A stretch of 64,000 bases of DNA from Deltaproteobacteria bacterium CSP1-8 (lineage in GTDB: Bacteria; Desulfobacterota; Deferrimicrobia; Deferrimicrobiales; Deferrimicrobiaceae), in the NCBI GenBank assembly GCA_001443455.1, contig LDXO01000005.1, forward strand, positions 67,660 through 131,659. Reading direction: 5' to 3'. This document shows, in pieces, positions 16,960-58,206 of this stretch; within the stretch, counting starts at the first letter, position 1, and the number at the start of each line of letters is the position of its first letter. The notes beneath the pieces were generated by a model. That model made no database searches. It was not told the DNA's origin and saw nothing but the letters and a program-made list of their open reading frames with translations. A program made the position numbers and the translations under genes.

Positions 16960-17300
16960 TCACTGCGCTCCCGCTCCTTCGGTTTGCTGCGCCGTCGACC
17001 GGGGACCCTGGCTCGCGGAGGGGTCCCCTCGGCTACGCTCGCGACCTTGCGCCCGCTTGCTGCCGGTTCCGCTCGACGCGATTTCTTCCTCGCTCCACAG
17101 GCCGCCTCGTCGACCCCCCCGCATCGCCTAGGGTCCCCGGTAGCAGGCACCCTCGCAATGGGGCGCGCCATGGGCGGAGCAGCCGAGGAAGGGGGATCCG
17201 AGCGGAGCTTTCCGGGAGGGAGGTCAAGCGCAGACTTGCGGGTGCATCGCAAGTCGAGCGACGAAGCGAGGAGCCCCCTCCGAGGATGCGGAAGCCGGCC
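16960..17300 (+). repeat. Mosaic intergenic repeat, copy 1 (core 17007..17132)
   Basis: Core is 124/126 identical to the reverse complement of 19135..19260. A second module at 17221..17300 is shared with copies 2 and 4. Confidence 0.9.
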
Positions 17301-17391
17301 ATGATGCTCCGCAACGGGGGGCGCATGTGTCGCGGCCGCCGCAGGGGAGGACGAGTTCTTAGGAACTTCCCTGTTCTTGGGTCGCGGCGGC

Positions 17392-18474
17392 CTACTCTCC
17401 GAGCCACTGGCCGAGGTGGTGCGTGGAGGGGACGTTCTCGAGGATGCATTTCGTGACGGCGACGATCGGAATTCCCAGGATAAGCCCCATCCCCCCCCAC
17501 ATCCACCCGAAGAACATGATCGACACCGTTGCCGCGACTGCGTTCAGCCGGACCCCCTTGCCGACGAGCTTCGGGATCAGGAAGTTGGCGGCCACGAGGT
17601 GGAGCAGGGAGACGCTTGCGACGATGACGACGATGGGCACTCCGGAGTCGAAGGTGACCAGCCCCACGACCAGGGCGGGCAGGAGGGCCAGCGGGAGTCC
17701 GAGGTACGGGATCGTGGAAAGCGTCCCGCTCAGGATCCCCAGGACGACCCAGTAGGGAAGACCCACGAGCAGGAAGACGAGGGTGGTGGAAAGGCTCAAG
17801 ACCCCCGCCACGATCGCGTTGCCGACGAGGAACCGCTGCATCATCCGCTCGATATCGTGGATGATCGCCCCCGCGATCTCCTGGTATTCCCCCGGGAAGA
17901 GCTCGCGGGTTTTCCGGGAGAGCACCTCTTTTTCCGCGAGGATGAAGTAGACCAGGAAAGGGATGAAGGAGAGCGAGAAGATGATCGTCGTGACCGACCC
18001 GAGGCCGTGGAAGACGGCATCGTACCAGGAGTTCCCCCCGCGGAGGACGACTTCGGTCCCCTTCTCGGCGGCCGACCCGGGCGGCGGGGCGATGCGCCTT
18101 CCCGCCTCGCTCAAGGTCTCCGTGATCTGATAGATCCGGTCGATGATGCCCTGCACCAGCGGGGCGTTCCGGATCTGCTCGACGAGGATCGGCAGGTCGG
18201 TGAAAAACTGCATCGCGCTCCGGTAGAGGAGGTAGAAAAGCCCGTAGAGGAAGGCGATCGCAAAAAACCCGACGACCATGCTGGACACCCTCCTGCCGAT
18301 CTTCGCCTTCCGGCAGAAGAACTGGACGAACGGCTCCAGCGCGAGGGCGATCAGGGCCGAGGAGAGAATCGTGATGAACACGGATGCGGCGAAGTAGAGG
18401 AAGGCGATCACCCCGAGGGTCGCCAGGAGCGCGAGACTCGCGACGGTCGTTCTGGGAAGCGTTGTGCGTTGCAT
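17392..18474 (-). CDS. AI-2E family transporter
   Basis: Hydrophobic profile, IPYLG and NFLIPKLVGKGVRLN..FFGWMWGGMGLILGIP. Confidence 0.9.
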   Translation of the reverse strand: MQRTTLPRTTVASLALLATLGVIAFLYFAASVFITILSSALIALALEPFVQFFCRKAKIGRRVSSMVVGFFAIAFLYGLFYLLYRSAMQFFTDLPILVEQIRNAPLVQGIIDRIYQITETLSEAGRRIAPPPGSAAEKGTEVVLRGGNSWYDAVFHGLGSVTTIIFSLSFIPFLVYFILAEKEVLSRKTRELFPGEYQEIAGAIIHDIERMMQRFLVGNAIVAGVLSLSTTLVFLLVGLPYWVVLGILSGTLSTIPYLGLPLALLPALVVGLVTFDSGVPIVVIVASVSLLHLVAANFLIPKLVGKGVRLNAVAATVSIMFFGWMWGGMGLILGIPIVAVTKCILENVPSTHHLGQWLGE

Positions 18475-18570
18475 TCGAATACTCTACCCTTATTCACCTC
18501 CCGCGCCATCCGCATTTTGTGGTATGAATGCCGGAAACGGCGCGCGGGTAGAGTTGAGGCCGGGGGGACG

Positions 18571-18990
18571 ATGGCCACCGCTTCCCACACCATCGAAATC
18601 CGGGTCCGGTTCGGGGAAACCGACCCGTACGGCGTGGCGTACTTCGCCGCCATCCTCGACTACTTCAAGCGGGGGATGGACGAGTTCCTCCGGTCGCGGG
18701 GACTTTCCCCCGACGGCGTCTACCGGAACGTCCGGAGGAGTTTCGGGTTCCCCGTGATTGCGACCCAGTGCCGGTACCGGTCCCCCGTCCGGTTCGACGA
18801 CCTGCTCACCCTGCGCACCCGGGTCGTCCGGGTCGAGGAGAAGGGGGCGACCTTCGGGTTCTCCCTCTTCCGGCCGGTGGAGGGAAAGGACGTCCTCGCC
18901 GCCGAGGGGAAGATCTCCTGCCGCTCGATAGACGCCTCCTGGAAGCCGATCCCCATCCCGAAGGACCTGCGCAAAGCGCTGACCGGATAG
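18571..18990 (+). CDS. Hot-dog-fold acyl-CoA thioesterase (YbgC/4HBT-like)
   Basis: RVRFGETDPYGVAY and YRSPVRFDDLL motifs. Confidence 0.88.
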   Translation: MATASHTIEIRVRFGETDPYGVAYFAAILDYFKRGMDEFLRSRGLSPDGVYRNVRRSFGFPVIATQCRYRSPVRFDDLLTLRTRVVRVEEKGATFGFSLFRPVEGKDVLAAEGKISCRSIDASWKPIPIPKDLRKALTG

Positions 18991-19020
18991 GATCGCGGTT
19001 GCGACCGCCGGGACGTGCTC

Positions 19021-19350
19021 CGCAGCCTCGGAGGGGGGCTCCGTTCGTGGCTCGCCGTGCGGTGAACCTGCACGGCTGCGCTTAACCTCACTGCGCCCCC
19101 ACTCCTTCGGCTTGCTGCGCCGGCAACCGGGGGCCCTAGGCGATGCGGGGGGGTCGACGAGGCGGCCTGTGGAGCGAGGAAGAAATCGCGTCGAGCGGAA
19201 CCGGCAGCGAGCGGGCGCAAGGTCGCGAGCGTAGCCGAGGGGACCCCTCCGCGAGTCAGGAACCCCGGACGCGTTGCCGCGGTCTGCGGCGGAGCCGGCC
19301 CCGTTCGCCCTCGCGACGGGCGGAACGGCAGCGAGCGGACGGTTACGCTC
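19021..19350 (-). repeat. Mosaic intergenic repeat, copy 2 (inverted)
   Basis: Core at 19135..19260. 19021..19121 matches the reverse complement of 58037..58148. Confidence 0.9.
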
Positions 19351-19379
19351 GACGCAAATCACCGGGGACATCTCCTGAT

Positions 19380-20243
19380 TCATCTCCGGGATGCGGGAGA
19401 GGAGTGTCCCCGCCCAGCAACGGCGATCGCCGCGTCGAGCTTGCCGCGGACCCGCGAGACCAGATCGAACAGGCGTGCTGCGGGAAGTTCCCTGCCCTGA
19501 ACCTTGAACGCGTCCACGCCGGCTGCGACCCAGGGCGCAAGCATATCCTCGATGGAGTGGAGATCCCGGGAGAGGGGAATCGCCCGGCAGACGAGATGGC
19601 ACCGGCCGGACCGCTTGGCGGAGGAAGGTGTCCCCGTTCCCGCCATCTGCGGGCGTTCCGGGGGAGACGCCCCCTCCCTGGCGTACCCGGGGAGCGCGCA
19701 CTTCCCCTGGAGAAGGATTTCCGGCCGGCAGTGCACGAAAACCTCCACCAGCAGGCCGCTTTCCTCCTTGATCGCGGGGATCTCCGCCGGGGTCAGGGCG
19801 GTCGGCAGGACGACCGCGTGGGCTCCGATATCCCGGTAGAACCGGGCATCGGAGGGATTGAGCGTGGATACCCCCACGGAGGCCGTGATCCGCAGAGGAG
19901 GTGCTTCCCGCCGCACGAGGGAGATCACCCCGGGGTCGGACAGGATCACCGCGAAGACACCGTCCTCCGTAAGCCGCCTCACGGTGGCCAGGAAGGAAGG
20001 GATCTCCGAGGCGCCCGGTATGGTGTTGAGCGCCGCGTGCAGCCGCGCCCCCTTCTCCTCGCATATCGCGGCGGCCTCCCGGACCTGTCCGGGCGGAAGC
20101 GAAGATCTCTCCCCGTCGCGGCTCCATCCCCGGCAGCCGACGTAGACGGCGTCTGCCCCTGCGGACAGGACCGCGCCTACCGCAGCGAGACTGCCCGCGG
20201 GCGCGAGAAGTTCCGGCTTGGCTATCCCTCTGTTGTCTTCCAT
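19380..20243 (-). CDS. Peptidase U32-family (Fe-S hydroxylation-type) protein, short form
   Basis: PELLAPAGSL, GADAVYVG and EVFVH with four Cys (HC..GKC..GRCHLVCR). Confidence 0.85.
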   Translation of the reverse strand: MEDNRGIAKPELLAPAGSLAAVGAVLSAGADAVYVGCRGWSRDGERSSLPPGQVREAAAICEEKGARLHAALNTIPGASEIPSFLATVRRLTEDGVFAVILSDPGVISLVRREAPPLRITASVGVSTLNPSDARFYRDIGAHAVVLPTALTPAEIPAIKEESGLLVEVFVHCRPEILLQGKCALPGYAREGASPPERPQMAGTGTPSSAKRSGRCHLVCRAIPLSRDLHSIEDMLAPWVAAGVDAFKVQGRELPAARLFDLVSRVRGKLDAAIAVAGRGHSSPASRR

Positions 20244-20460: not shown

Positions 20461-20865
20461 ATGCTTCGGATGCTCGCTGATTTCGCAACGGTTCTTGTGT
20501 TTATCGTGCTTGGCGCGGTGACCGTGGCCCTCATGCTGGGGATCTCCCGCCTGCTCCGGCCGCGCAACCCCACGCCGGTCAAGCTGTCCACGTACGAGTG
20601 CGGCGAGGTCCCGTTCGGCTCCTCGTGGGTGCAGTTCAACATCCGCTTCTACGTGGTCGCCCTGATCTTCCTCATCTTCGACGTGGAGGTGGCGCTCCTC
20701 TACCCGTGGGCCGTCATCTTCCGGCGCCTGGGCCTCCTGGCGTTCGTGGAGGCGTTCATCTTCATCGTCATCCTGCTCGCGGGTCTGGCCTACCTGTGGA
20801 AGGAGGGGGACCTCGAATGGGTGCGCACCGTCCAGGAAACGCCCCCCCCGAAGGAAGGCAAATGA
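20461..20865 (+). CDS. nuoA: Complex I subunit A (operon 1)
   Basis: [19 protein letters not shown] and LYPWAV. Confidence 0.95.
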
Positions 20866-21389
20866 GCCACGATCCCGCGCACAGCGGCCCGGCTCCCGCC
20901 GTCGGCCCGGTTTCCCTCGGCCCCGAGGCGCACGTGATGGTGGGCAACGCCGACAAGTTCATCAACTGGTGCCGGAAGTCCTCTCTCTGGTACCTCCTGT
21001 TCGCGACGGCCTGCTGCGGCATCGAGCTGATGCAGACCGGCGCCTCGCGGTACGACCTCGACCGGTTCGGCGCCGTCTTCCGGGCGACCCCGCGGCAGTC
21101 GGACCTGATGATCGTCGCCGGGACCATCACGCACAAGATGGCCGAGCGGCTGATACGGCTCTACGAGCAGATGCCCGAGCCCAAGTACGTGATCTCGATG
21201 GGCTCCTGCGCCAACACGGGCGGCCCCTTCTACAAGGACTCCTACTGCGTGGTCAAGGGGGTGGACCTGCTCATCCCGGTCGACGTCTACGTCCCCGGCT
21301 GCCCCCCCCGGCCCGAGGCGCTCATCGACGGCATCCTCAAGCTCCAGAAGATCATCGAGCAGAAGAGAAATTTCGCGGCGAAGGCGTAA
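20862..21389 (+). CDS. nuoB: Complex I subunit B (operon 1)
   Basis: ACCGIE, PRQSD, MGSCA and VPGCPPRPE. Confidence 0.95.
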
Positions 21390-21399
21390 GGGAACCCGA

Positions 21400-21870
21400 T
21401 TGGAACCGAAAGCGATCTTCGAAGCGGTGAAGGGGAAATTCGGCGAGGCGGTGGTGGAGCTCCAGGAGGAAGGGTTCCGCCCGGCGTTCGTGGTCGTTTC
21501 CCCGGAGTCGGTCCGGGAGATCTCCCTGTTCCTGCGCGACGACCCCGCGATGAAATTCGACTCCCTCATGTGCCTGTCCGGCGTCGATTACAAGGACCGC
21601 TTCGCCGTCGCCTACCACCTTCATTCCCTGGAGATTGGCCACCGGATCGGGGTCAAGGCGTACCTCCCCCGGGAGGCGCCGTCCCTGCCGAGCGTCGACG
21701 GGGTATGGCCGGCGGCAAACTTCCAGGAGAGGGAGGCCTTCGACCTGTACGGGATCGTCTTTCCGGGGTCCAAGGACCTGCGACGCATCCTGCTCCCGGA
21801 GGACTGGGTGGGGTACCCGCTGCGCAAGGACTACAAGTACCCCGAGTTCTACCACGGGATCAAGGTATGA
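21400..21870 (+). CDS. nuoC: Complex I subunit C (operon 1)
   Basis: EREAFDLYGI.F..RRILLPEDWVGYPLRKD. TTG start. Confidence 0.93.
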   Translation: MEPKAIFEAVKGKFGEAVVELQEEGFRPAFVVVSPESVREISLFLRDDPAMKFDSLMCLSGVDYKDRFAVAYHLHSLEIGHRIGVKAYLPREAPSLPSVDGVWPAANFQEREAFDLYGIVFPGSKDLRRILLPEDWVGYPLRKDYKYPEFYHGIKV

Positions 21871-22997
21871 AGGCCCGCGCGGAAGCGCTCCCCACCCAGG
21901 AGATGCTCATCAACATGGGGCCGCAGCACCCGAGCACCCACGGGGTGCTCCGGGTGATCCTGCGCACCGACGGCGAGGTGGTGGTCAACGCCAGGCCGGA
22001 TGTCGGGTACCTGCACCGGGCGCTGGAGAAGATCGGCGAGCGGGTGACCTACGCGCAGTTTATGCCCTTCACCGACCGGCTCGACTACCTCGCCTCGATG
22101 AACTGCAACGCGGCGTGGGCCTGGACCGTGGAGAAGCTGGCCGGCATCGAGGTCCCCGAGCGGGCGGAGTACATCCGGGTGATCGTGTGCGAGCTCAACC
22201 GGATCTCCTCGCACCTGATCGCCTTCGGGTCGTTCACCGCCGACATGGGGGCTTTCACCCCCTTCCTGTACGCCATCCGCGAGCGGGAGAGGATCAACGA
22301 CCTGTTCGAGGACATCTGCGGGAACCGGCTGACGTACAATTACGTCCGCATCGGCGGCGTCTCGGCCGACCTGCCGGACCGGTTCCTCGAGAAAACGAAG
22401 GAATTCCTCGACTACTTCGAGCCGAAGATCCCCGAGTACAACAAGTTGATCTCCTACAACAAGATCTTCGTCCACCGGCTCGCCAACGTGGCGGCCATTT
22501 CCGGCGGAGAGGCCGTCGCCTACGGGCTCACGGGGCCGAACCTTCGGGGCTCCGGGGTTTCCTTCGACCTGCGGAGAAGCGAGCCGTATTCGGTCTACCC
22601 GAAGCTCGACTTCGACGTCTGCGTCGGGACGGGGGAGCGGGGGACGGTGGGGGACTGCTTCGACCGGTACATGGTGCGGATCAACGAGATGAGGGAAAGC
22701 GTGAAAATCCTGCGCCAGGCGATCGCGCAGATCCCCGGCGGCCCGGTCATGGCCAAGGTTCCCCGGGCGTTCAAGCCGCCCGTCGGGGAGGTGTACTTCC
22801 GCGCCGAGAACCCGCGCGGGGAGACGGGGATCTACCTCATCAGCGACGGGACCGTGAATCCCTACCGGCTGAAGCTCCGCGCCCCCTCCTTCGTGACGAT
22901 GAACATCTTCGAGAAGGTCACCAAGGGGCTGATGATCGCCGACATCGTGGCGGTCATCGGCAGCTTCGACATCATCCTCCCGGAGATCGACCGGTGA
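21867..22997 (+). CDS. nuoD: Complex I subunit D (operon 1)
   Basis: NMGPQHPSTHGVLR, GYLHR, DRLDY, ENPRGE and EIDR. No NiFe CxxC motifs. Confidence 0.95.
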   Translation: MKARAEALPTQEMLINMGPQHPSTHGVLRVILRTDGEVVVNARPDVGYLHRALEKIGERVTYAQFMPFTDRLDYLASMNCNAAWAWTVEKLAGIEVPERAEYIRVIVCELNRISSHLIAFGSFTADMGAFTPFLYAIRERERINDLFEDICGNRLTYNYVRIGGVSADLPDRFLEKTKEFLDYFEPKIPEYNKLISYNKIFVHRLANVAAISGGEAVAYGLTGPNLRGSGVSFDLRRSEPYSVYPKLDFDVCVGTGERGTVGDCFDRYMVRINEMRESVKILRQAIAQIPGGPVMAKVPRAFKPPVGEVYFRAENPRGETGIYLISDGTVNPYRLKLRAPSFVTMNIFEKVTKGLMIADIVAVIGSFDIILPEIDR

Positions 22998-23001
22998 CGT
23001 C

Positions 23002-24120
23002 ATGATGGAATCGCTCGCGGTATCCCTGGTCAATGCCGTGCCGGCGCTCTCGGGCGTCCCGCTGTGGACGATGACCCTCCTGGTCATGGTGGTGGTCGCG
23101 GCGGTCGTCCTCACCTTCGCCCTGCTGTACGCGGGGCTGGCGACCTACGTCGAGCGGAAGGTGGCCGGCGACATCCAGGCGCGCATCGGCCCGAACCGGG
23201 TCGGCCCCTTGGGGCTCCTCCAGTTCCTGGCCGACGGGATCAAGCTCCTCCTCAAGGAGGACATCATCCCGGCCAAGGCCGACCGGTTCCTGTTCGCCCT
23301 GGCACCGTACCTCGTGTTCATCGGCTCCTTCGCCGCCTTCGTGGTCGTCCCCTTCGGCGTGGGGCTGATCGCCTCCGACCTGAACATCGGAGTCTATTAT
23401 GTGATGGCCATCAGCTCCCTCGTGGTGGTGGGCGTGATGCTCGCGGGGTGGTCCTCCAACAACAAGTGGGCCCTCCTGGGGGGAATGCGCGCGGCGGCGC
23501 AGATCGTCTCGTACGAGGTCCCGGTGGGGATGGCGCTCCTTCCCGCGGTCCTCATCGCCGGCTCTCTCTCCCTCCAGGACATCGTCCGGTCCCAGGGAGG
23601 GCTGCTCGGGATCTTCGGGTGGAACCTCTTCCACAACCCGTTCACTTTCGTTTCCTTTTTCCTGTATTACACCGCGGCGCTGGCGGAGACGAACCGGACG
23701 CCCTTCGACATCCCGGAGGCCGAATCGGAACTCGTGTCCGGGTACCACGTGGAATACTCGGGAATCCGGTTCGCCTTCTTCTTCCTCGCCGAGTACGGCG
23801 ACATGTTCGTCGTGTCCGCGCTGGCGACCGCCTGCTTCCTTGGCGGGTGGCACGTGCCGTTTCTTGACGCCGAGGCGCTTCCCGTCGCCTGGGGCAACCT
23901 GTTCTCGCTGGGCGTGTTCCTCGCCAAGGCGCTGGGGCTCGTCCTGCTCATGATGTGGATCCGGTGGACCCTGCCCCGGCTGCGCGTGGACCAGCTCATG
24001 CGCATGTCGTGGAAGTACCTGGTCCCGATCACGTTTTTCAACCTGCTGGGCGTCTCCCTCTGGCTCCTGGTTTTCCACGGCAAGGGGATTCCCCGGATGA
24101 TCGCGTCGCTCTTCGGATAA
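23002..24120 (+). CDS. nuoH: Complex I subunit H (operon 1)
   Basis: ERKVAGDIQARIGPNRVG and ETNRTPFDIPEAESELV. Confidence 0.95.
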   Translation: MMESLAVSLVNAVPALSGVPLWTMTLLVMVVVAAVVLTFALLYAGLATYVERKVAGDIQARIGPNRVGPLGLLQFLADGIKLLLKEDIIPAKADRFLFALAPYLVFIGSFAAFVVVPFGVGLIASDLNIGVYYVMAISSLVVVGVMLAGWSSNNKWALLGGMRAAAQIVSYEVPVGMALLPAVLIAGSLSLQDIVRSQGGLLGIFGWNLFHNPFTFVSFFLYYTAALAETNRTPFDIPEAESELVSGYHVEYSGIRFAFFFLAEYGDMFVVSALATACFLGGWHVPFLDAEALPVAWGNLFSLGVFLAKALGLVLLMMWIRWTLPRLRVDQLMRMSWKYLVPITFFNLLGVSLWLLVFHGKGIPRMIASLFG

Positions 24121-24124
24121 CGGG

Positions 24125-24775
24125 ATGGGCTTGAAGGGTTATTTGCACGACATCTGGGAAGCCGTGGCGACCACCGCCAAGGGGATGCGGATCACCGCGC
24201 GGTACGGGGTGGACCCGAGGGAGACGATCACCCTCCAGTACCCCGAGGAGCGCTGGGAGCCGTCCGAGCGGTTCCGGGGGTTCCTGCACAACGACATCAA
24301 GAGATGCACGAGCTGCACGATGTGCGTGAAGGTCTGTCCCGTGGATTGCATCTCCCTGGAATCGGTCCGGGGGGCCGACAAGAAATTGGTGCTGGCCTCC
24401 TACGACATCAACATCGGGCGCTGCATGTACTGCGGACTCTGCGTCGAGGTGTGCCCCCCGAAATCGCTTACGCATACGAGCGGATACGAGAAGGCGACGG
24501 TCACCCGCGGGGAGCTGATCCTGCACTTTGTCCCCGAAGATGCGGAAGAGATCAAGGCCCGCGTGGCGAAGCAGGTGGCGGAAGCGGCGGCGAAGGCGGA
24601 AGCGGAAAAGTCGGCGAAGGCGGAAGCCCCCCCGATGGGCTGGCCCGCGCCGGTGTTTGCGGCGGGAAATCCCGGGGCCGGCGCCGACGCCGAGAAAAAG
24701 CCCGCGCAGGAGCCGAAGGGGGAGCCTGCGAATCGGGAGGAGCCCCCGAAAGAGGGTGGGGAGAAGGCGGAATGA
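24125..24775 (+). CDS. nuoI: Complex I subunit I with long A/E/K/P-rich tail (operon 1)
   Basis: Two CxxCxxCxxxCP motifs and RFRG. Confidence 0.93.
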   Translation: MGLKGYLHDIWEAVATTAKGMRITARYGVDPRETITLQYPEERWEPSERFRGFLHNDIKRCTSCTMCVKVCPVDCISLESVRGADKKLVLASYDINIGRCMYCGLCVEVCPPKSLTHTSGYEKATVTRGELILHFVPEDAEEIKARVAKQVAEAAAKAEAEKSAKAEAPPMGWPAPVFAAGNPGAGADAEKKPAQEPKGEPANREEPPKEGGEKAE

Positions 24776-25302
24776 AGGGCCCGGTGGATCTGGTCTTCTA
24801 CGTGCTGGCTGCCGTCACGGTGGGGTCGGCGATCCTCGTGGCGACCCTTCCGAACATCATCTACGCCGCGGTGGCGCTTTTGTTTGCCTTCTTCGGCGTG
24901 GCGGGGCTGTATATCCTTGTTTCCGCGGACTTTTTGGCGGCCACGCAGGTGCTGGTCTATGTCGGGGGGATTCTCGTGCTGATCATGTTCGCGGTCTTCC
25001 TGTCGAGCCGGATCTCCTCCGTCGAGCTGTCCAACCCGGTCCATTTCCGGCTGCCCGCGGCGGCGATCTGCCTCGCCCTGTTCGGCGTGCTGGCGCACAC
25101 GGCGGTATCCCCGGCGTTCATCCCGAAGCCGCAGGTCACGTACCAGCCGACCACCGCCGAGATCGGCGAGCTTCTGATGACCCGGTACCTGCTCCCGTTC
25201 GAGGTCGCCTCCGTGCTGCTGCTCGCCGCCCTCATCGGCGCGGCGCTCCTGTCGCGCCCGGACCGGCCCGATATCCCGAGACCCGACATGGAGGAGCCGT
25301 AG
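24772..25302 (+). CDS. nuoJ: Complex I subunit J (operon 1)
   Basis: QVLVYVGGILVL and YLLPFEVASVLLL. Confidence 0.93.
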   Translation: MKGPVDLVFYVLAAVTVGSAILVATLPNIIYAAVALLFAFFGVAGLYILVSADFLAATQVLVYVGGILVLIMFAVFLSSRISSVELSNPVHFRLPAAAICLALFGVLAHTAVSPAFIPKPQVTYQPTTAEIGELLMTRYLLPFEVASVLLLAALIGAALLSRPDRPDIPRPDMEEP

Positions 25303-25305
25303 TAG

Positions 25306-25608
25306 ATGGCCCTGGACAAGATGCTGGTCGTCGGCGCGGCGCTTTTCTGCTGCGGCCTGTACACGATCCTGACGCGGCGCAACGCGGTGGCCGTCCTCAT
25401 GGGGGTGGAGCTGGTCCTGAACGCCGCCAACATCAATTTCGTGGCGTTCTCGCACTACGTATCCCGGATGATCGGGGGGCAGATCTTCGCCGTATTCGTC
25501 ATCGTGCTCGCGGCCGCCGAGGCGGCCGTCGCGCTGGCCATCTTCCTGCGGCTGTTCGCCACGACGGGAACCGTGGAAGTGGACACGGCCGACCATCTCA
25601 GGGGTTGA
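25306..25608 (+). CDS. nuoK: Complex I subunit K (operon 1)
   Basis: RRNAV..MGVEL..AAAEAAVALA. Confidence 0.93.
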   Translation: MALDKMLVVGAALFCCGLYTILTRRNAVAVLMGVELVLNAANINFVAFSHYVSRMIGGQIFAVFVIVLAAAEAAVALAIFLRLFATTGTVEVDTADHLRG

Positions 25609-25637
25609 TGCAGTAAACGAAACGAAAGGGTGAACCG

Positions 25638-27857
25638 TTGATCCGATACGCCTACATCATCCCGTTCCTGCCGCTCGCCGCCTTCTTCGTCAACATCGCG
25701 GTCGGGAAGCGGCTGCCGCGGAAGGGGGACTGGCTCTCCATCGGCACGATCGGCGCGGGCCTCGTGATGTCGATCGTGATCTTCTTCGAGGTCTTCCGGA
25801 TCTACGACCCGAACTTCCGGTACCACGTCGTGGTCCCGTGGCTTTCCCTGGGCGGCAGGTTCGTCATCCATGCGGGGGTCCTCATCGACAACCTGACGGC
25901 CGTGATGCTCGTCGTCGTGACGGGCGTCTCGACGCTGGTCCACATCTTCTCCGTCGGCTACATGCACGGCGACCCGCGGTACTCCCGGTATTTCGCCTAT
26001 CTCTCCGTCTTCTCGTTTTCCATGCTGGGGCTCGTCCTCGCCGAGAGCTTCTTCTTCATCTACATCTTCTGGGAGCTGGTCGGGTTTTCCTCCTACGCAC
26101 TCATCGGGTTCTGGTTCGAGAAGAAGTCGGCCGCCGACGCCGGCAAGAAGGCGTTCATCGTGAACCGGGTGGGCGACTTCGGCTTCCTGATCGGGTTCCT
26201 GCTCCTGTTCGCCACGACCGGGGTGCTGGGGTACGACGAGGTCTTCCGGGCGATCGGGGAAGGGAAGATCGGCGGGACCCTCCTGACCCTGGCGGGGATC
26301 GGGATCTTCTGCGGCGCCATCGGGAAGTCGGCCCAGTTCCCGCTCCACGTCTGGCTTCCCGACGCGATGGAAGGCCCCACACCGGTCTCGGCACTGATCC
26401 ACGCGGCGACGATGGTGGCCGCGGGCGTCTACCTCGTCGGGCGCGTCTACCCGATCTTCACGCCGGACGCCTTTCTCTTCATCGCCTACGTCGGGCTCCT
26501 CACCCTCTTCATCACGGGCACGATCGCGATCACGGCCACCGACATCAAGAAGGTCCTCGCCTACTCCACGTGTTCCCAGCTGGGGTACATGATCCTGGGT
26601 CTCGGGGTGGGCGGGTACACGGCGGGCCTGGCCCACCTGACCACCCACGCCGCCTTCAAGGCGTGCCTGTTCCTGGGCTCCGGGTCGGTGATCCACGCCG
26701 TCCACAGCCAGGAGATCACGGAGATGGGGGGCCTGCGGAAGAAGATGCCGATCACCTTCGTCACCTTCCTCATCGCCACGCTTGCGATCGCGGGGGTCCC
26801 GCTCTTCTCGGGCTTCTACAGCAAGGATATGATCCTGGGAGCCGCCCTCGAGTTCGGCCTGAAGAATCCGCATCACATGATCCTGTTCGCAGGCGCGCTC
26901 CTGACCGCGGGGATGACGGCCTTCTACATGTTCCGGCTGGTGATCCGCACGTTCCTCGGGGAACCGGTGGACCGCCACAAGTTCGAGCACGCGCACGAGT
27001 CGCCCCCCAACATGTGGGTTCCCCTCGTGATTCTCGCGGGGTTGTCGTTCTCCTTCTGGTACAGCGGGTGGTTCGGCGACCTGGTCCGGAAGCCCGCTTC
27101 CGCGATCCCGGCCGTCCACGCCCTGAAGGCAACGCCTGCCGGGGCTCACGCGGTGAGTTCCGCGCCTTCGCCGGAAGGGCGATTCGGATTGGCGAGCGGC
27201 CTGGCGCACGCCGGGACCCCGAAGGCGCCGCAGGGGGCCTCCGGACACGGTTCCGCCGTTCCTCCGGCGCATTCGAAAGGCGGGCACGGGACGCCGGTTC
27301 CTCCCGCGGGGCACGGGCCGGCCGGCGGGCACGACGCGGAAGGGGTGGGGCCCCACGCGGCCGCCTCCCCCGATGCCGCCCACGACGAGCACCTGGCGCA
27401 CACGGCCCATACCTGGGCGATGCGGCTGTCGATCCTGTTCGCGGGGTTGGGGATCGGCCTGGCGTTCGTCGTCTACCTGTTCGGCTGGATCAACCCCGTG
27501 AAGGTGGCGTCAACGCTCAAGCCCGTCCACACGTTCCTGGTGAACAAGTGGTATTTCGACGAACTCTACGAGGCGACGGCCGTCAACGGGACGAAGGCCC
27601 TCTCCCGCGCGCTGGGCTGGTTCGACCTTACCGTCGTGGACGGACTCGTCAACCTCTGCGCGCACCTGGGCGTCTGGTTCTCCTACCTGACGGGGAAGTT
27701 CGACAATTACGTGGTCGACGGCGCGGTGAACGGCGTCGCGGACGTCACGATCGGCAGCGGCTCCTTCTTCCGCCGGTTCCAGACCGGCAAGCTCTACCAC
27801 TATGTCTTCATCCTGGCGGGCGGCGTGCTGATCATTTTCCTGGTAAAAGCGTTCTGA
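25638..27857 (+). CDS. nuoL: Complex I subunit L with ~105-aa His/Ala/Pro/Gly insertion (operon 1)
   Basis: GKSAQFPLHVWLPDAMEGPTPVSALIHAATMV and KKVLAYST. Confidence 0.95.
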   Translation: MIRYAYIIPFLPLAAFFVNIAVGKRLPRKGDWLSIGTIGAGLVMSIVIFFEVFRIYDPNFRYHVVVPWLSLGGRFVIHAGVLIDNLTAVMLVVVTGVSTLVHIFSVGYMHGDPRYSRYFAYLSVFSFSMLGLVLAESFFFIYIFWELVGFSSYALIGFWFEKKSAADAGKKAFIVNRVGDFGFLIGFLLLFATTGVLGYDEVFRAIGEGKIGGTLLTLAGIGIFCGAIGKSAQFPLHVWLPDAMEGPTPVSALIHAATMVAAGVYLVGRVYPIFTPDAFLFIAYVGLLTLFITGTIAITATDIKKVLAYSTCSQLGYMILGLGVGGYTAGLAHLTTHAAFKACLFLGSGSVIHAVHSQEITEMGGLRKKMPITFVTFLIATLAIAGVPLFSGFYSKDMILGAALEFGLKNPHHMILFAGALLTAGMTAFYMFRLVIRTFLGEPVDRHKFEHAHESPPNMWVPLVILAGLSFSFWYSGWFGDLVRKPASAIPAVHALKATPAGAHAVSSAPSPEGRFGLASGLAHAGTPKAPQGASGHGSAVPPAHSKGGHGTPVPPAGHGPAGGHDAEGVGPHAAASPDAAHDEHLAHTAHTWAMRLSILFAGLGIGLAFVVYLFGWINPVKVASTLKPVHTFLVNKWYFDELYEATAVNGTKALSRALGWFDLTVVDGLVNLCAHLGVWFSYLTGKFDNYVVDGAVNGVADVTIGSGSFFRRFQTGKLYHYVFILAGGVLIIFLVKAF

Positions 27858-27873
27858 CCGGAGGAGGTCTTCC

Positions 27874-29403
27874 TTGGACTTTATCAACAGCCACATCCTG
27901 ACCCTGATGACGTTCCTTCCCGTGGCCGGAGCGGCGATCATCCTCATGATGCCCTCGGGCAGGGACAACCTCGTCAAGACGATCGCCGCGGTGGCGTCTT
28001 TCCTGCCGGTCCTGCTCGCGGTCCAGCTCTGGTTCCTCTACGACCGCACGGTGGCCGGCGTGAACGTGGCGAGCCAGTTCCAGTTCGTCGAGCACTATCG
28101 CTGGATCCCGTCGATCAACGTCGAGTACTTCCTGGGGGCAGACGGGATCTCGATGCCGATGATCATGCTCACGACGATCGTCTCCTTCCTGGCGGTGGTC
28201 GGCTCCTGGGGGATCGAGAAGCAGATCAAGGGGTACATGGCCCTGATCCTCCTCCTCGAAACCGGCATGATGGGCGTCTTCTGCGCCCTGGACTTCTTCC
28301 TCTTCTACGTCTTCTGGGAAGTGATGCTGCTGCCGATGTACTTCCTCATCGGGATCTGGGGAGGTCCCCGGCGCGAGTACGCGGCGATCAAGTTCTTCCT
28401 GTATACGCTCCTGGGCTCGGTCCTGATGCTTCTCGTGATGCTGGCGCTCTATTTCAACACGACGAATCCCGAGACGGGCGGGCACACCTTCAACATGCTC
28501 CACTACATGCAGCAGTCGACCCACAACGGATGGCTCAAGGGGTTCGACATCCGGATCCTCCTCTTCCTCGGGCTCTTCATCGGGTTCGCGATCAAGGTCC
28601 CCCTCTTCCCGTTCCACACGTGGCTCCCCGACGCCCACGTCGAGGCGCCGACCGCCATCTCGGTCATCCTGGCGGGGATCCTCCTGAAGATGGGGACGTA
28701 CGGCCTGATGCGGATCTCCTTCCCGATGTTTCCCGACGTGACGAAGTGGTTCGTCATCCCCATGGCCGTCCTGGGGGCGATCAACATCGTCTACGGCGCC
28801 CTGTGCGCGATGGCGCAGTCCGACCTGAAGAAACTGGTCGCCTACTCCTCGGTGAGCCACATGGGATTCTGCCTCCTCGGGATGGCGGCGCTCACTCCGG
28901 CCGGGATGGTCGGCGCGTCGTTCCAGATGTTCTCCCACGGCATGATCACCTCCATGCTGTTCTTCCTGGTCGGGGTCATCTACGACCGGGCGCACCACCG
29001 CGACATCGACGGGTTCGGGGGACTGGGCGCCGTCGTTCCGGTCTATACCTTCTTCATCACCGTTGCGTTCTTCGCCTCGCTGGGCCTGCCGGGCTTCTCC
29101 GGGTTCGTCGCCGAGGCGATGGTCTTCATCGGGTCGTTCTCCGTCTTCCGGACGATCGTGATGATCTCCGCCTCGGGGATCATCATCGTGGCCGCGTTCC
29201 ACCTCTGGGCGCTCCAGCGCGTCTTCCTCGGGCCGCTCAACCCCAAGTACGCCCAGCTCGAGGAGATCAACTCCCGGGAAATCTTCTGCCTCGCTCCGCT
29301 GGCGCTGATGACGCTGATCCTGGGGGTCTACCCGATGCCGGTGCTCAACCTGATGAGCGCGTCCTTGAATCATCTCGTCGACGTCGTGAACATGGTGATC
29401 TAG
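27874..29403 (+). CDS. nuoM: Complex I subunit M (operon 1)
   Basis: FWEVML, KVPLFPFHTWLPDAHVEAPT and LKMGTYG. Confidence 0.95.
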   Translation: MDFINSHILTLMTFLPVAGAAIILMMPSGRDNLVKTIAAVASFLPVLLAVQLWFLYDRTVAGVNVASQFQFVEHYRWIPSINVEYFLGADGISMPMIMLTTIVSFLAVVGSWGIEKQIKGYMALILLLETGMMGVFCALDFFLFYVFWEVMLLPMYFLIGIWGGPRREYAAIKFFLYTLLGSVLMLLVMLALYFNTTNPETGGHTFNMLHYMQQSTHNGWLKGFDIRILLFLGLFIGFAIKVPLFPFHTWLPDAHVEAPTAISVILAGILLKMGTYGLMRISFPMFPDVTKWFVIPMAVLGAINIVYGALCAMAQSDLKKLVAYSSVSHMGFCLLGMAALTPAGMVGASFQMFSHGMITSMLFFLVGVIYDRAHHRDIDGFGGLGAVVPVYTFFITVAFFASLGLPGFSGFVAEAMVFIGSFSVFRTIVMISASGIIIVAAFHLWALQRVFLGPLNPKYAQLEEINSREIFCLAPLALMTLILGVYPMPVLNLMSASLNHLVDVVNMVI

Positions 29404-30882
29404 ATGCCTCTGGGGAACCTCGCCAGCCTCCGGTATTTCCTGCCGGAACTCGCGATCACCGCGACGATCCTTTTGCTCGTCGTCCTCCACGTCGTGGGGA
29501 GGAACCGACGCTCGCCCGAAGCGGCAATCCTGGCGCTGGTCGGAACGGGCATGGCGCTCTGGGTCGCGTGGATGACCCCCGCGGGGGAGGGGATCGGGCT
29601 CTTCGAGGGGATGGTCGTCCTGGACGGTTTCGCGGTCTTCTTTAAAGTGCTGACCGCCCTGGCGACCGCCATCGTCATCTTCATGTCGATCGACTGCTAC
29701 GAGCTCACGGACAGGACGCAGGCCGAGTACTATCTCTTCCTCCTCTCGGTGCTGCTCGGGATGTTCCTCCTTTCCTCGGCCAGCGACATCGTGATGCTCT
29801 ACCTCGCGCTCGAGCTGGTCTCGATTCCCTCGTACCTGCTCGCCGGCTACCTGAAGGGGAAGGCGTCCTCCACCGAGGCGTCGATGAAGTACGTCGTTTA
29901 CGGGGCGACCGCTTCGGGGGTGATGATCTACGGATTCTCGCTCCTGTACGGCATGACGGGGTCGACGCAGATTTCCGAGATCGGGCGCGTCCTTACCCTG
30001 GGGACGGCGCCCCTGCCGGCGATGCTGGCGGCAGTGATGGTGACCGTGGGATTCGGGTACAAGATCGCCGCCGTTCCGTTCCACATGTGGAGCCCCGACG
30101 TGTACGAGGGGGCGCCCACTCCCGTGACGGCTTTCCTTTCCGTCGGGCCGAAGGCCGCGGGGTTCGCGGTCCTGGTCCGGTTCTTCTACACCGTCTTCGC
30201 CTCCCCCGACGGGGCCGACGGGATGTGGAAACTCTCCTCCTCCGTGGACTGGCCTTTTCTGTTCGCCGTCCTGTCCGCGGTGACGATGACGGTGGGGAAC
30301 CTGGTCGCCATCAACCAGAGGAACGTGAAGCGCCTGCTCGCCTACTCCTCGATCGCGCACGCCGGGTACATGCTGATGGGATTCGTCCTGCTCACCACGG
30401 TGGGGCTCAAGGCGATCCTCTTCTACCTCGTCGTGTACCTCTTCATGAACCTGGGCGCCTTCTACGTGGTCGTCCTGGTCGCCAACGGCAGCCGGAGCGA
30501 GGACATCTCCTATTTCTCGGGGCTGGGCAGCAGGGCGCCTTTCGCCGCGGTCTCGCTGGCCATCTTCCTGTTCGCGCTCACGGGGATCCCGCCGTTTTCG
30601 GGGTTCATCGGCAAGGTCTACCTGTTCGCCGAGGTGATCAACCGGGGGGTCTACTGGCTCGCCCTCGTGGCGGCGCTCAACAGCGTGATCTCCCTGTACT
30701 ACTACGCGAGGATCGTGAAGGTGATGTTTTTGGAGGACCCCACGCAGGCGGGAGATCTCCCGTTGGCCCTCGTGCCGAGAGTCATGCTGGCCATCCTGGT
30801 GGTTCCCACGCTTTTGCTGGGGATATACTGGGAGCCTGTCATCCGCGTCACCGAAGCGTCGGTGCGAATCCTGACACACTGA
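29404..30882 (+). CDS. nuoN: Complex I subunit N (operon 1)
   Basis: EASMKY, KIAAVPFHMWSPDVYEGAPT and KRLLAYSSIAHAGY. Confidence 0.95.
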   Translation: MPLGNLASLRYFLPELAITATILLLVVLHVVGRNRRSPEAAILALVGTGMALWVAWMTPAGEGIGLFEGMVVLDGFAVFFKVLTALATAIVIFMSIDCYELTDRTQAEYYLFLLSVLLGMFLLSSASDIVMLYLALELVSIPSYLLAGYLKGKASSTEASMKYVVYGATASGVMIYGFSLLYGMTGSTQISEIGRVLTLGTAPLPAMLAAVMVTVGFGYKIAAVPFHMWSPDVYEGAPTPVTAFLSVGPKAAGFAVLVRFFYTVFASPDGADGMWKLSSSVDWPFLFAVLSAVTMTVGNLVAINQRNVKRLLAYSSIAHAGYMLMGFVLLTTVGLKAILFYLVVYLFMNLGAFYVVVLVANGSRSEDISYFSGLGSRAPFAAVSLAIFLFALTGIPPFSGFIGKVYLFAEVINRGVYWLALVAALNSVISLYYYARIVKVMFLEDPTQAGDLPLALVPRVMLAILVVPTLLLGIYWEPVIRVTEASVRILTH

Positions 30883-30895: not shown

Positions 30896-31279
30896 GTGGC
30901 GAACTTCGTTTCCTCCATCCAGTTTTCCGACCCGTATTTCTCGGTCCTCCTGCTCCTGATCATCGCCGTCGGGATGGCGGTGGGGTTCGTCTTCCTCTCC
31001 CAGGCCCTGGGGCCCAGCAAGTACGACCGGATCAAGTACAGCGTCTACGAATGCGGCGTGGACCCCATCACGTCCGCCTCGGTCCGGGTGTCGGTCAAGT
31101 TCTACCTGGTCGCCCTGCTGTTCATCCTGTTCGACCTGGAGTCGGCGTTTCTCTACCCGTGGGCGGTTCTCTACCGGGACCTCGGCTGGTTCGGATTCGT
31201 CGAGATGGCCGTGTTCGTGGGGATCCTCCTCGCGGGGCTTCTCTACGCATGGAAGAAGGGGGCGCTCGAATGGCAGTGA
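30896..31279 (+). CDS. nuoA: Complex I subunit A (operon 2)
   Basis: YECGVD and [14 protein letters not shown]. Starts 13 bp after nuoN of operon 1. Confidence 0.95.
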
Positions 31280-31773: not shown

Positions 31774-31785
31774 AGCGGAAGGGAA

Positions 31786-32277: not shown

Positions 32278-32283
32278 ACAGAG

Positions 32284-33986: not shown

Positions 33987-33992
33987 AAGACG

Positions 33993-35403: not shown

Positions 35404-35413
35404 CTAGGGAACC

Positions 35414-38082: not shown

Positions 38083-38098
38083 GGCGGAAACGGAAACG

Positions 38099-38584: not shown

Positions 38585-38591
38585 GAGCCCC

Positions 38592-39080: not shown

Positions 39081-39124
39081 CGGTGCGCGAAGCGATCGCG
39101 CACCACAAGCGGAGACCTTCGTAA

Positions 39125-41460: not shown

Positions 41461-41483
41461 GAACGGAGAAGGGAGATTCCTGG

Positions 41484-41723: not shown

Positions 41724-41733
41724 GTAGGAGCGT

Positions 41734-43314
<1,581 letters not shown>

Positions 43315-43321
43315 GGAAGCG

Positions 43322-55779: not shown

Positions 55780-56265
55780 GTGGAGGGGAAAGGAAAGATT
55801 TCGACGGGGAGGCGGAAAACGGTTCTCTTCCTGTGCACCGGGAACGCCTGCCGCAGCCAGATGGCGGAGGGGTGGGCGAAGGCGCTGAAAGCGGGAGAGA
55901 TCGAGGTCTTTTCCGCCGGGGTGGCGCCGTGCTACGTCCACCCGAAGGCGATCCGGGTCATGGCGGAGGCGGGAGTCGATATCTCGGAGCAGTACTCGAA
56001 GCATGTGGAGGAGATGGACGGGATCCGGTTCGACTGCATCGTGACGTTGTGCGACTACGCCGGCGAGGTGTGCCCCTACCACCCCGGCCTTGGAAAACGC
56101 ATCCATCAGCCGTTCGAGGACCCCGTCCACGCGCGCGGGACGGAAGAAGAGGTGCTTGCCCGGTTCCGGGACGTCCGGGACCAGATCAGGCGTTTCGTCG
56201 AGGGGATGCCGGGGAACCTCGACGACCCGGAGGAAGCCGGCGATTCGGGGATGGACAAGAGCTGA
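55780..56265 (+). CDS. arsC: Thioredoxin-coupled arsenate reductase (LMW-PTP fold)
   Basis: FLCTGNACRSQMAEG and VTLCD..CP, all three Cys present. Confidence 0.85.
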   Translation: MEGKGKISTGRRKTVLFLCTGNACRSQMAEGWAKALKAGEIEVFSAGVAPCYVHPKAIRVMAEAGVDISEQYSKHVEEMDGIRFDCIVTLCDYAGEVCPYHPGLGKRIHQPFEDPVHARGTEEEVLARFRDVRDQIRRFVEGMPGNLDDPEEAGDSGMDKS

Positions 56266-56339
56266 AGCGGGGGATCCCTCTCCGGGCGGCAGCCCGTATG
56301 TTATGATTTTCCCACTGCGTTTCGCACCTGGGGGGAAGG

Positions 56340-57782
56340 ATGGCGTTCCGGGACCTGCGGGAGTTCCTCACCGCGCTCGAGGCGCGCAGGGAGCTGAAAA
56401 GGATCACGGCCCCCGTGTCCACGGACCTCGAGGCGGCGGAGATCGCCGACCGCGCAGTGAAAGCCGGCGGGCCGGCGCTCCTGTTCGAAAACGTGAAGGG
56501 GCACACCGTCCCGCTCGCCATGAACCTCTTCGGCACGATGGGACGGATGTGCCTGGCCCTGGGCGTCTCCTCCCTGGACGAGATCGGCCTGCGGATGATG
56601 GAGGTGATTGAGCCGGAGATCCCGTCCAACCTCATCGAGAAGCTCAAGATGCTCCCCAAGCTTGCCCGCCTGGCCGACTTCATCCCGAAGACCATCTCCA
56701 CCGGGCCGTGCCAGGAGGTGGTGGAAAAAGAAAGGCCGTCTCTCTCCTTCCTCCCTGTCGTCAAGACGTGGCCGGGGGACGGGGGACCGTTCATCACCCT
56801 TCCCCTCGTCTTCACGAAGGACCCGAATACGGGGCGCCGCAACGTGGGGATGTACCGGATGCATGTCTACGACGAGACGACCACGGGGATGCACTGGCAC
56901 ATCCACAAGGGGGGGGCGCAGCATTACCGGGGGTTCCGGAAGAAACGGGAGCGGATGCCGGTGGCGGTGGCGCTCGGTGGCGACCCGGCGACGATCTACG
57001 CGGCTTCCGCCCCTCTGCCCGAGGACGTGGACGAGATGGTCTTCGCCGGCTTTTTGCGGAAGCAGCCGGTCGAGCTCGTCCGCTGCCGGACGGTCGACAT
57101 CGAAGTCCCGGCCCACGCCGAGGTGATCCTCGAGGGGTACGTCGACCCGGACGACCTGCGCACGGAGGGACCGTTCGGAGACCACACGGGGTACTACTCC
57201 CTCGCCGACGATTATCCCGTCTTCCACGTCACCTGCGTGACGAGGCGAAAGAGCCCGATCTACCCCGCGACGATCGTGGGGAAGCCCCCGATGGAGGATG
57301 TCTACCTCGGGAAGGCGACGGAACGGATCTTCCTTCCGCTGCTGCGGAAGATCGTCCCGGAAGTGGTCGACATGAACCTGCCCGTCGAGGGGATCTTCCA
57401 CAACTTCGCCCTCTTCTCCATCGACAAGCGCTATCCGGGCCACGCCCGGAAGGTGATGAGCGCCGTGTGGGGCCTGGGGCTGCTCATGTTCTCGAAGTTC
57501 GTCGTCATCTTCGACTCCGACGTGAACATCCAGGACCTCTCCGAGGCCCTCTGGCGGATCGGGAACAACGTGGACCCCCGGCGCGACACGATGATCGTCG
57601 AGGGGCCCGTCGACGCCCTGGAGCACGCCTCCCCCATCCCCCACTACGGGTCGAAGATGGGGATCGACGCGACGCGGAAGTGGAAGACGGAGGGCTTCGC
57701 CCGCGAGTGGCCCGAGGACATCCGGATGGACGACGACATCGTGGCCCTCGTGACGCGCCGGTGGAAGGAGTACGGATTCTGA
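56340..57782 (+). CDS. ubiD: UbiD-family decarboxylase (menaquinone, futalosine pathway type)
   Basis: RNVGMYRM, EGPFGDHTGYY, GKPPMED and SKMGIDATRK. Confidence 0.9.
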   Translation: MAFRDLREFLTALEARRELKRITAPVSTDLEAAEIADRAVKAGGPALLFENVKGHTVPLAMNLFGTMGRMCLALGVSSLDEIGLRMMEVIEPEIPSNLIEKLKMLPKLARLADFIPKTISTGPCQEVVEKERPSLSFLPVVKTWPGDGGPFITLPLVFTKDPNTGRRNVGMYRMHVYDETTTGMHWHIHKGGAQHYRGFRKKRERMPVAVALGGDPATIYAASAPLPEDVDEMVFAGFLRKQPVELVRCRTVDIEVPAHAEVILEGYVDPDDLRTEGPFGDHTGYYSLADDYPVFHVTCVTRRKSPIYPATIVGKPPMEDVYLGKATERIFLPLLRKIVPEVVDMNLPVEGIFHNFALFSIDKRYPGHARKVMSAVWGLGLLMFSKFVVIFDSDVNIQDLSEALWRIGNNVDPRRDTMIVEGPVDALEHASPIPHYGSKMGIDATRKWKTEGFAREWPEDIRMDDDIVALVTRRWKEYGF

Positions 57783-58206
57783 TGGTCCGCCGACCTGCAG
57801 ATCCCGGCATCTGCGCTCCGCCGAGGTCGCCCAATGCGGCACAGGGCGCGGAAACCGACTCCGCCCCCTCGGAGGGGGGCCGCTCACCGCAGCAGAGGGA
57901 CCCTGCCTCGCGGGGGCTTCCCCTCCGCTACGCTCGCGACCTGCGCCCGCTCGCTGCCGTTCCGCTCGCCGCAATCCGCACCTCGCTCCACAGGCCGCTT
58001 CGTGGAACCCCCCGCATCGCCCCGGGTCCTCTGTCGGCGGCGCAGCAGCCGCAGGAGGGGGTCGGAGCTGAGGTAAAGCGCAGCCTTGCAGGTTCACCGC
58101 ACGGCGAGCCACGAAGCGAAGGCCCCCTCCGAGGCTGCGAAGCCGGCCCCGGGTGTTTCCGCGACGGGGCACGCGCCGCACCATTCCCCCGGCGCGGGGG
58201 AGGCCA
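57783..58206 (+). repeat. Mosaic intergenic repeat, copy 4, in the ubiD-ubiA spacer
   Basis: Core at about 57901..58021 plus module 58037..58148. TG...CA ends, flanked by CTGA on both sides. Confidence 0.85.

Follow-up and report, generated by a model that had tools for sequence, protein, structure and literature searches.

Transposable elements of the miniature inverted-repeat kind (MITEs) that have a TA or CTAG target include, in Neisseria, the Correia elements (CREE/NEMIS) and, in Streptococcus pneumoniae, RUP, which derives from IS630, and the insertion sequence IS1397 targets the hairpins of repetitive extragenic palindromes (REPs). REP hairpins are also targeted by the insertion sequence ISPpu9 (PMC8450116), and mosaic regions in which different repeat families are interleaved are reported in PMC3733652. 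The present work concerns an intergenic repeat family found in a 64,000-nt stretch of DNA (the window) from Deltaproteobacteria bacterium CSP1-8, a metagenome-assembled genome (MAG) of the Deferrimicrobiaceae (MBNT15) comprising 2.18 Mb in 46 contigs (G000; the window is C5:67660–131659). The family is a mosaic of the MITE and REP type, resembling bacterial interspersed mosaic elements (BIMEs), and is thus a new family of a known kind of genomic parasite; its members are probably lineage-specific small non-coding hairpin-forming units that behave as non-autonomous mobile DNA and build mosaics by nesting and fusing.

One type of element in the family is bounded by an outer inverted repeat, here termed H2, with terminal inverted repeats (TIRs) of ~34 nt (GTGCACCGTCTCGTAAATAGCTTGAC). 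Every H2 copy ends with ...ACGAGACG(G/C)T(G/A)CACTAG, followed by unrelated DNA, and the target (C/T)TA(G/A), single where the site is empty, is found in two copies where it is filled, the duplicated part being either TA or all four bases, which are indistinguishable. The elements are 150–500 nt long with a usual form of 167 nt (32 copies), and they often sit on a TAG or TAA stop codon. With TIRs, target duplication, small size, no coding sequence and many copies, H2 is a classical MITE, and the copies at nuoF–nuoG and nuoL–nuoM in the window belong to this type. The likeness to the Correia and RUP MITEs extends to length (150–250 nt, some ~500), lack of coding capacity, TIRs of ~34 nt, a TA duplicated within (C/T)TA(G/A), copies that number in the dozens and lie in operons and where genes end, and presence or absence between close relatives; however, the sequence is unrelated to theirs, and the interior is a variable, invertible cargo of palindromic units (the modules A, C, E, G, R17 and D-B). 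A longer class of H2-bounded elements, at ~505 nt three times the usual length, occurs at C1:26922–27425, C3:14138–14645, C4:117542–118044 and C30:15751–16254.

Insertion is read most directly from orthologous sites that are filled in one genome and empty in another. A search of the genus with positions 40900–42300 of the window found the nuoL–nuoM site filled in G000, G005 and G006 (85–89% identity) and empty in eight genomes on nine contigs (G001, G002, G003, G008, G009 with two contigs, G010, G011 and G012). The empty spacer is 36 nt long and reads ...GAGATTC-CCG or TTAG-GAGCG..., as against CTGG[...]GTAG in G000, and the inserted segment defined by the aligned junctions (copy 3 of the table) begins with CTGGTGTTGCGTCTCGTAAACACATTGACC and ends with GTCAAGCCATTTACGATACGCTGCAGTAG, two ~34-nt inverted repeats that match the H2 consensus. 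At nuoF–nuoG the left repeat of the element starts with CTAA (35258–35261), which contains the nuoF stop codon TAA, and the right repeat ends with CTAG (35404–35407), 6 nt ahead of the nuoG ATG. This site is empty in the closed relative G005 (chromosome CP070783.1), where it reads TTC TAG GACGAGG ATG, compared to TTC TAA[TGCGCC...GGGACAC]TAG GGAACC ATG in G000; the comparison shows that the element occupies the stop codon and that the left target copy now terminates nuoF. Similarly, C4:88839 and C15:30324 have CTAG[...]CTAG in G000 and a single CTAG in G005 (in one such pair, TCTGGAA-CTAG-[element]-CTAG-AACCAG vs TCTGGGA-CTAG-AACCAC), and the target variants CTAA, TTAG and ATAG are found at other sites in the same comparison of G000 with G005. 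Among 52 repeat loci with flanks in G005, most match spacers of 1–60 nt there.

The core of the family, module A, is an imperfect palindrome of ~142 nt whose tip varies; it occurs solo, fused to a unit termed D-B, or in the hairpin loop of an H2 MITE. The borders CCGGGGNCCCTGGCTCGCGG... and ...CCCCCCGCATCGCC(T/C)(A/C)GGGNCCCCGG are common to the solo copies and to 13 A-D-B copies, and beyond them the flanks are unrelated; the consensus fold of 30 A units is one long hairpin with an outer stem and the inner stem GCTGCCGGTTCCGC / GCTCCACAGGCCGC. In the first copy in the window the A unit has imperfect ~30-nt inverted ends (CCGGGGACCCTGGCTCGCGGAGGGGTCC / GACCCCCCCGCATCGCCTAGGGTCCCCGG), a variable center and the conserved blocks GCTACGCTCGCGACC, CGCCCGCT(C/T)GCTGCCGGTTCCGCTCG and CCTCGCTCCACAGGCCGC; exact words of the A core occur 40–48 times per genome. 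Four CGCTCG-like motifs in this unit (ACGCTCGCGA, CCGCTCGCTG, CCGCTCGACG and CCTCGCTCCA, at 17040–17100) lie 17–18 nt apart and are its most conserved words. D-B is a second unit of ~105 nt with inverted ends of its own, GCGCAGCA(A)GCCGAAGGAG.GGGGG and CCCCCCTCCGAGGCTGCGGAGC, and a further module, G, lies in the variable tip or center of A at six loci. The recurrent architectures are A, A-D(-)-B, H2-A-C-H2, A1-G-A2 and R17-A. Ten of the 70 A-bearing loci lie between two H2 ends, 11 have one recognizable related end (that of CTAAG...CTAAG elements carrying module R17) and 49 have none; A is thus cargo in some MITEs and is mostly found alone or with D-B.

Nesting is accompanied by changes of orientation. 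The interior of the nuoF–nuoG MITE is a hairpin, CCGCGCAC...GTGCGCGG, with a 9-nt loop where A would be, and alignment of the H2 elements on module C gives for it CCGCGCACAGGGCGC-CCCCGGCAA-GCCCGTGCGCGG. Within the loop of this hairpin, A is forward in copy 3 and at C14:787 and reversed at C1:11425, C4:40743 and C17:975. The asymmetric bases adjacent to the stem (AGGGCGCT / GAGCCC) flip together with A, indicating that the entire loop is inverted between CGCAC and GTGCG. A corresponding difference is found for A-D-B at one orthologous spacer, between a thioesterase gene and a U32 peptidase gene, where the unit is reversed in G000, G008 and G005 and forward in G009, G012, G002 and G010. G009 is the nearest relative of G000 at this locus (92%) and yet has the opposite orientation, and G008 and G012 share a common left flank but differ in orientation; these flips come from recurrent inversion between inverted B-type ends or else from insertion more than once.

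In having several kinds of palindromic unit in limited orders and orientations, intergenic and mostly 3' of genes, the family resembles enterobacterial BIMEs and the mosaic clusters of Neisseria. Unlike BIMEs, however, its units are longer (142 nt for A and ~105 nt for D-B, vs 20–40 nt; this comparison is one of length and arrangement, and likeness in sequence would not be expected), and part of the mosaic was clearly made by nesting in TIR-bounded MITEs.

Within the window the core had been placed at four sites by an original prediction made from the letters of the sequence, and it was found at all four (Table 1), with its own inverted ends and, in copy 3, within the larger element. The copies at 17 and 19 kb are 95% complementary across 153 nt and the remaining core pairs are 62–89% alike; BLAST E-values between copies of 1e-33 to 1e-64 exclude chance likeness. 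The assignments of module B to copies 1, 2 (reversed) and 4, and of module C to copy 3 and to a site at 35.3 kb, also hold, as does the statement that all copies are intergenic and several lie inside operons, judged here by gene calls made for this work with neighbors named via Pfam. A genome-wide BLASTn search, which had been proposed, finds other copies across the G000 assembly with E-values down to 1e-147. The scale was nevertheless understated, since the genome contains ~70 A copies, and modules D, E, F, G and H2 as well as the outer TIRs of copy 3 and of the 35.3-kb copy had been missed; a fifth, partial core is present in copy 2.

Table 1. Coordinates of the repeat copies in the window and of their parts.
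Feature	Position	Strand	Description
Copy 1 locus	16906–17385	+	480-nt mosaic, E - D - A - degenerate inverted D - B - F
Module E	16906–16957	+	52 nt; 15 BLAST alignments begin at 16906, 12 finish at 16957
Module D	16959–17010	+	shares its final 12 nt with A's left inverted end
A unit of copy 1	16999–17140	+	142 nt; borders from solo and A-D-B copies
Module B of copy 1	17217–17292	+	longer subtype, runs on to ~17330; 12 alignments begin at 17217, 15 finish at 17292
Module F	17296–17385	+	ends 6 nt short of the stop of the AI-2E transporter gene, which is convergent
Copy 2 locus	19021–19414	-	nhmmer at the site
B of copy 2	19021–19089	-	
D of copy 2	19088–19134	+	
A unit of copy 2	19127–19268	-	
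A1 fragment of copy 2	~19318–19346	-	partial fifth core
G hairpin module of copy 2	19359–19414	-	
35.3-kb copy	35258–35407	+	complete 150-nt MITE, nuoF–nuoG
C of 35.3-kb copy	35327–35375		
Copy 3	41480–41727	+	248-nt MITE, nuoL–nuoM
Left inverted repeat of copy 3	41480–41515		starts CTGG
A of copy 3	~41528–41646	+	
C of copy 3	41645–41692		
Right H2 of copy 3	41693–41727		ends GTAG
Copy 4 locus	57783–58211	+	429-nt spacer, ubiD-like–ubiA-like
A unit of copy 4	57895–58031	+	
Inverted D of copy 4	~58032–58070		
B of copy 4	~58066–58139		

Copies 1 and 2 both lie between convergent genes (for an AMP-binding enzyme and an AI-2E transporter at copy 1, for a 4HBT thioesterase and the peptidase U32 at copy 2). 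The borders of the modules in copy 1 were taken from a per-base coverage profile of BLAST alignments, in which the whole locus consists of repeated DNA with sharp internal borders; it lies 3' of a terminator hairpin (16824–16855) that is conserved in all species compared. In most other copies an inverted D is found between A and B, and B itself comprises two subtypes. Module F contains the short palindrome AAGAACAGGGAAGTTCCTAAGAAC. A motif related to this palindrome, GGGACGTTC(C/T)T, occurs in 50 copies in both G000 and G005, vs 2 for the reversed control.

Iterative nhmmer searches over the G000 assembly gave 70 matches for A1, 58 for A2, 34 for B, 25 for D, 20 for E, 26 for F, 12 for C and 33 for G, together with 41 for the H2 outer inverted repeat. 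Repeats with 20 or more copies add up to 15.4 kb, of which 97% falls outside gene calls, and several contigs terminate within a repeat copy. Convergent spacers hold 18 of 57 A copies (32%), compared to 183 of 1394 among all spacers (13%). The identity of A copies to their nearest neighbor within the genome is 92% at the median and reaches 99% at most, which points to an expansion that is spread over time and is partly recent. G005 has far lower counts (A1 12, A2 15, B 2, G 0, E 0), and the short G motif GGGGACA(C/T)TCC occurs 101 times in G000 vs 9 times in G005.

The core is lineage-specific. The other 12 genomes of the genus all carry it, as do 5 of the 12 other family genera that were sampled; none of the 16 genomes sampled outside the family does. 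When an exact two-block core pattern was scanned over one genome per species (185,579 species), the only matches were MAGs of the Deferrimicrobiaceae type (the G005 chromosome is among the matching records) and one bin labeled Limnocylindria (DATHRT01, 'Candidatus Limnocylindria bacterium' SMAG_U16032, Chloroflexota; four contigs, L012, L013, L037 and L039), which is probably mislabeled or mixed. The H2 end is found in 55 of the 70 genomes of the family, spread over 13 of the 14 genera, and a reversed control gave 0 matches. A paper describing genomes of the lineage lists five mobile-element genes and leaves these repeats unmentioned (PMC9386147).

Spacers turn over between sister species: spacers of 1–60 nt in one species hold 200–600 nt of repeats in another and copy number differs ~five-fold. 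The spacer that holds copy 1 has a length of 56 nt in G012, 90 in G002, 103 in G010, 109 in G005, 181 in G009, 273 in G008 and 608 in G000, with different fills. At the copy 4 locus the ubiD-like and ubiA-like genes of G003 overlap (TTCTGATGCTC, with stop and start as TGATG), representing an empty site, whereas G000 and six other genomes of the genus are filled with 156–429 nt of different mosaics (156–416 nt in the six), always between TGATGG and CTGA(CA)TG. The fill of G010 is bordered by CTGATG at either end, resembling a 5–6-bp duplication.

Among the three possibilities raised in the original prediction, a non-autonomous element family is thus upheld by the filled and empty sites, the TIRs and the duplicated target, and a BIME-like mosaic by palindromic units that combine and nest, whereas a structured RNA is not. 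As a mechanism, the H2 elements would be moved in trans by a DDE transposase that targets TA or CTAG, of an IS630/Tc1-like or IS5-like kind. A and A-D-B may spread via their own inverted ends, by a single-strand enzyme that recognizes hairpins, or by recombination between copies; the orientation flips could arise from recombination or template switching between flanking inverted repeats, or from repeated insertion; and copies would survive at operon junctions and the 3' ends of genes, where insertion is presumably least harmful. Several observations weigh against this account. No H2 pair 1–2 kb apart, as expected of an autonomous element with H2 ends, is present among the matches listed, and in the search for a partner transposase, which covered the IS630 type, the DDE_3 genes of G000 and G009 and ten other loci in the family have no H2-like ends. 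No target duplication or conserved flank is readable for A alone or for A-D-B at the solo and 13 A-D-B copies, and the intergenic DNA of G000 and G005 is too diverged for exact borders of empty A or A-D-B sites, so that spread of A and A-D-B by recombination or gene conversion instead of transposition is possible.

Within the genus, IS630-type DDE_3 genes were found only in G000 (three, all on contig C8) and in G009, the genomes richest in H2. As partners of H2 these transposases are doubtful, since their ends differ, one copy (C8:13038) sharing only the octamer CGTAAATA with H2.

That A and A-D-B are elements that seek hairpin loops or invert themselves, going beyond passive cargo, is unlikely, but it is suggested by the fact that they always lie between inverted repeats (their own ends, the CCGCGCAC/GTGCGCGG stem of the MITE, or inverted B ends), that both orientations occur in one MITE family, and that orientation at the orthologous spacer does not follow overall relatedness in the seven species. 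In this respect the position of A in the MITE loop, of G in the center of A and of A-D-B between inverted B ends recalls IS1397 and ISPpu9; unlike those insertion sequences, the inserted pieces are non-coding, and it is their arrangement that would point to loop targeting. If this were so, an enzyme would be responsible for recurrent DNA inversion or for orientation-free insertion into cruciform tips, possibly one that recognizes the phased CGCTCG motifs or else the hairpin with its GTAG tag. The same motifs could instead suggest that A is an array of binding sites for a nucleoid or regulatory protein or for an invertase, with the change of orientation being a regulated inversion. The CGCTCG-containing blocks being the most conserved words of A, and the finding of both orientations within the MITE as well as at an orthologous site, would agree with such an array, but it is hardly to be expected: no candidate binding protein or invertase was found linked to the copies, both isomers are multiple and dispersed, a pattern that suggests inversion long ago and spread thereafter, and the elements are dispensable in sister species.

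Mobilization of A, as a REP or REPIN (REP doublet forming a hairpin), by the REP-associated tyrosine transposase (RAYT) of the genome is very improbable, despite several points of likeness. A near-invariant CTAC (GTAG on the other strand) stands beside a local 8-bp hairpin, GCGGGGGG-CTTC-CCCTCCGC, and is present in 53 of the 60 A1 matches whose flanking block was found, A itself being 142 nt long and asymmetric, unlike a REP of 20–40 nt. This layout equals that of the GTAG-tagged REPs in PMC3733652, where REPs are also placed inside palindromes such as CCGSSCC..GGSSCGG that resemble the outer ends of A. G000 further has one Y1 transposase gene, on contig C26, which is RAYT-like (PF01797, 34 bits). 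The GTAG beside a stem, the location of units within larger palindromes and a single-copy Y1 gene between inverted repeats recall REPs and REPINs associated with RAYTs (Bertels and Rainey 2011, PMC3116915; Di Nocera 2013, PMC3733652). Unlike the situation in REPINs, however, the gene is flanked on both sides by inverted copies of another repeat, AAGGGACGTTCTTAAAACTTTT, with none of A, B or C beside it, nor does its distribution track that of A: the A-bearing genomes G006, G010 and G011 have no Y1_Tnp match, and the gene is present in the A-less genera g2, g9, g10 and g13. With these different flanking repeats and no co-occurrence with A, the RAYT was rejected as the mobilizer of A. In addition, the gene scores 67 bits with NF047646, for which the cut-off is 80, A does not consist of one short REP in doublet form, and there is no pool of empty target palindromes: those of the CCGGGGNCCC..GGGNCCCCGG type are at background level only (33 loose matches in G000 vs 36 in G005). 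A single-strand route for A is possible in view of the conserved GTAG beside a local hairpin and of REPs known inside palindromes (PMC3733652). The AAGGGACGTTCTTAAAACTTTT repeat, to which the 50 copies of the GGGACGTTC(C/T)T motif in each of G000 and G005 belong, is itself found at 16803–16823 of the window and at 300–330, 385–410, 1405–1430 and 2470–2570 of locus L001 on C26, and together with the RAYT-like gene it looks like a stable REP-RAYT pair distinct from A, B and C.

A different kind of explanation is that A, or the whole mosaic, acts mainly as RNA in 3' untranslated regions and operon spacers, affecting mRNA stability, processing or termination, with spread being secondary. This is unlikely, although the copies lie 3' of genes and within operons, each unit is predicted to be foldable as a long hairpin, and REPs of other bacteria are reported as RNA elements in PMC3733652. 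The description of the repeats as highly structured was not borne out, as the minimum free energies of three copies are no better than those of dinucleotide shuffles (z-scores of +0.10, -0.95 and -0.58). The proposed Rfam check left the repeats unmatched, there being no match at gathering scores in the window or at E <= 1 in 16700–19500, except for two weak chance matches that both lie off the repeats. RNAalifold, run on 79 A units and separately on 30, gave a hairpin without covariation (for the 30 units, a covariation term of +0.14, and one of 25 pairs with a single compensatory change); since the base pairs are near-invariant, the covariation result is uninformative, reflecting a lack of evidence and no refutation. 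A lies with transcription 20 times and against it 13 times, which, with the enrichment in convergent spacers, fits tolerated insertions and symmetric hairpins and is unlike a strand-specific RNA, and sister species lack the elements at equivalent sites. Nor do the spacers appear to be kept as open bridging frames for translational coupling in the manner of mycobacterial interspersed repetitive units (MIRUs), a highly doubtful reading for which the ubiD–ubiA site provides the evidence. There a frame is open in five of the seven filled genomes (G000, G011, G006, G005 and G010) through 156–429 nt, from an ATG that overlaps the upstream TGA to a TGA that lies 1 nt before, or overlaps, the downstream ATG. 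However, the frame is not kept in G002 and G012, and in repeat-rich co-directional spacers genome-wide the antisense strand is open in 11 of 16 and the sense strand in 10 of 16; such equal openness on both strands indicates that the frames follow from G+C richness. A is moreover read in differing frames at different sites, and one third of its copies lie between convergent genes.

The repeats break Deferrimicrobiaceae/MBNT15 MAG assemblies, whose contigs end in them, inflate spacers and create long spurious open reading frames (ORFs). Two of the MITEs lie inside the operon for the 14-subunit complex I, and the one at nuoF–nuoG both took over the nuoF stop and supplies the sequence just 5' of the nuoG start, so that the pairs of sister species with and without the elements offer a natural test of polar effects on a respiratory operon. 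With a five-fold range in copy number and one closed genome, the genus offers a compact system in which to follow nesting, fusion and inversion of palindromic units. Two complex I operons are arranged head to tail in the window (20461–30882 and 30896–44797); MITEs are found only in the second, 14-subunit one, and the first has no intergenic gaps.

Lower-G+C contigs (C8, C9, C10, C16, C23, C25, C26, C28, C33, C34 and C40–C42; 445 kb with G+C <62%, 20% of the assembly) contain one of the 70 A1 matches and no D, E or C matches, and they carry all three IS630-like genes and the RAYT-like gene. Flanks on C26 and C9 are 74–88% identical to G005, so that contamination is not the obvious explanation; these contigs may represent islands or another replicon. 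Two more dispersed families, unrelated to A, B and C, are represented by C8:15408–15476 (28 matches) and C1:157933–158016 (17 matches); one of them is centered on the lower-G+C contigs, and the other ends in TTGACAGG and could be a promoter-bearing unit. Finally, the G+C-rich repeats and spacers of G000 easily yield spurious ORFs, and next to copy 2 a 139-amino-acid 4HBT thioesterase gene at 18571–18990 (+) was overlooked by the gene caller, which called an 84-amino-acid frame on the opposite strand instead.

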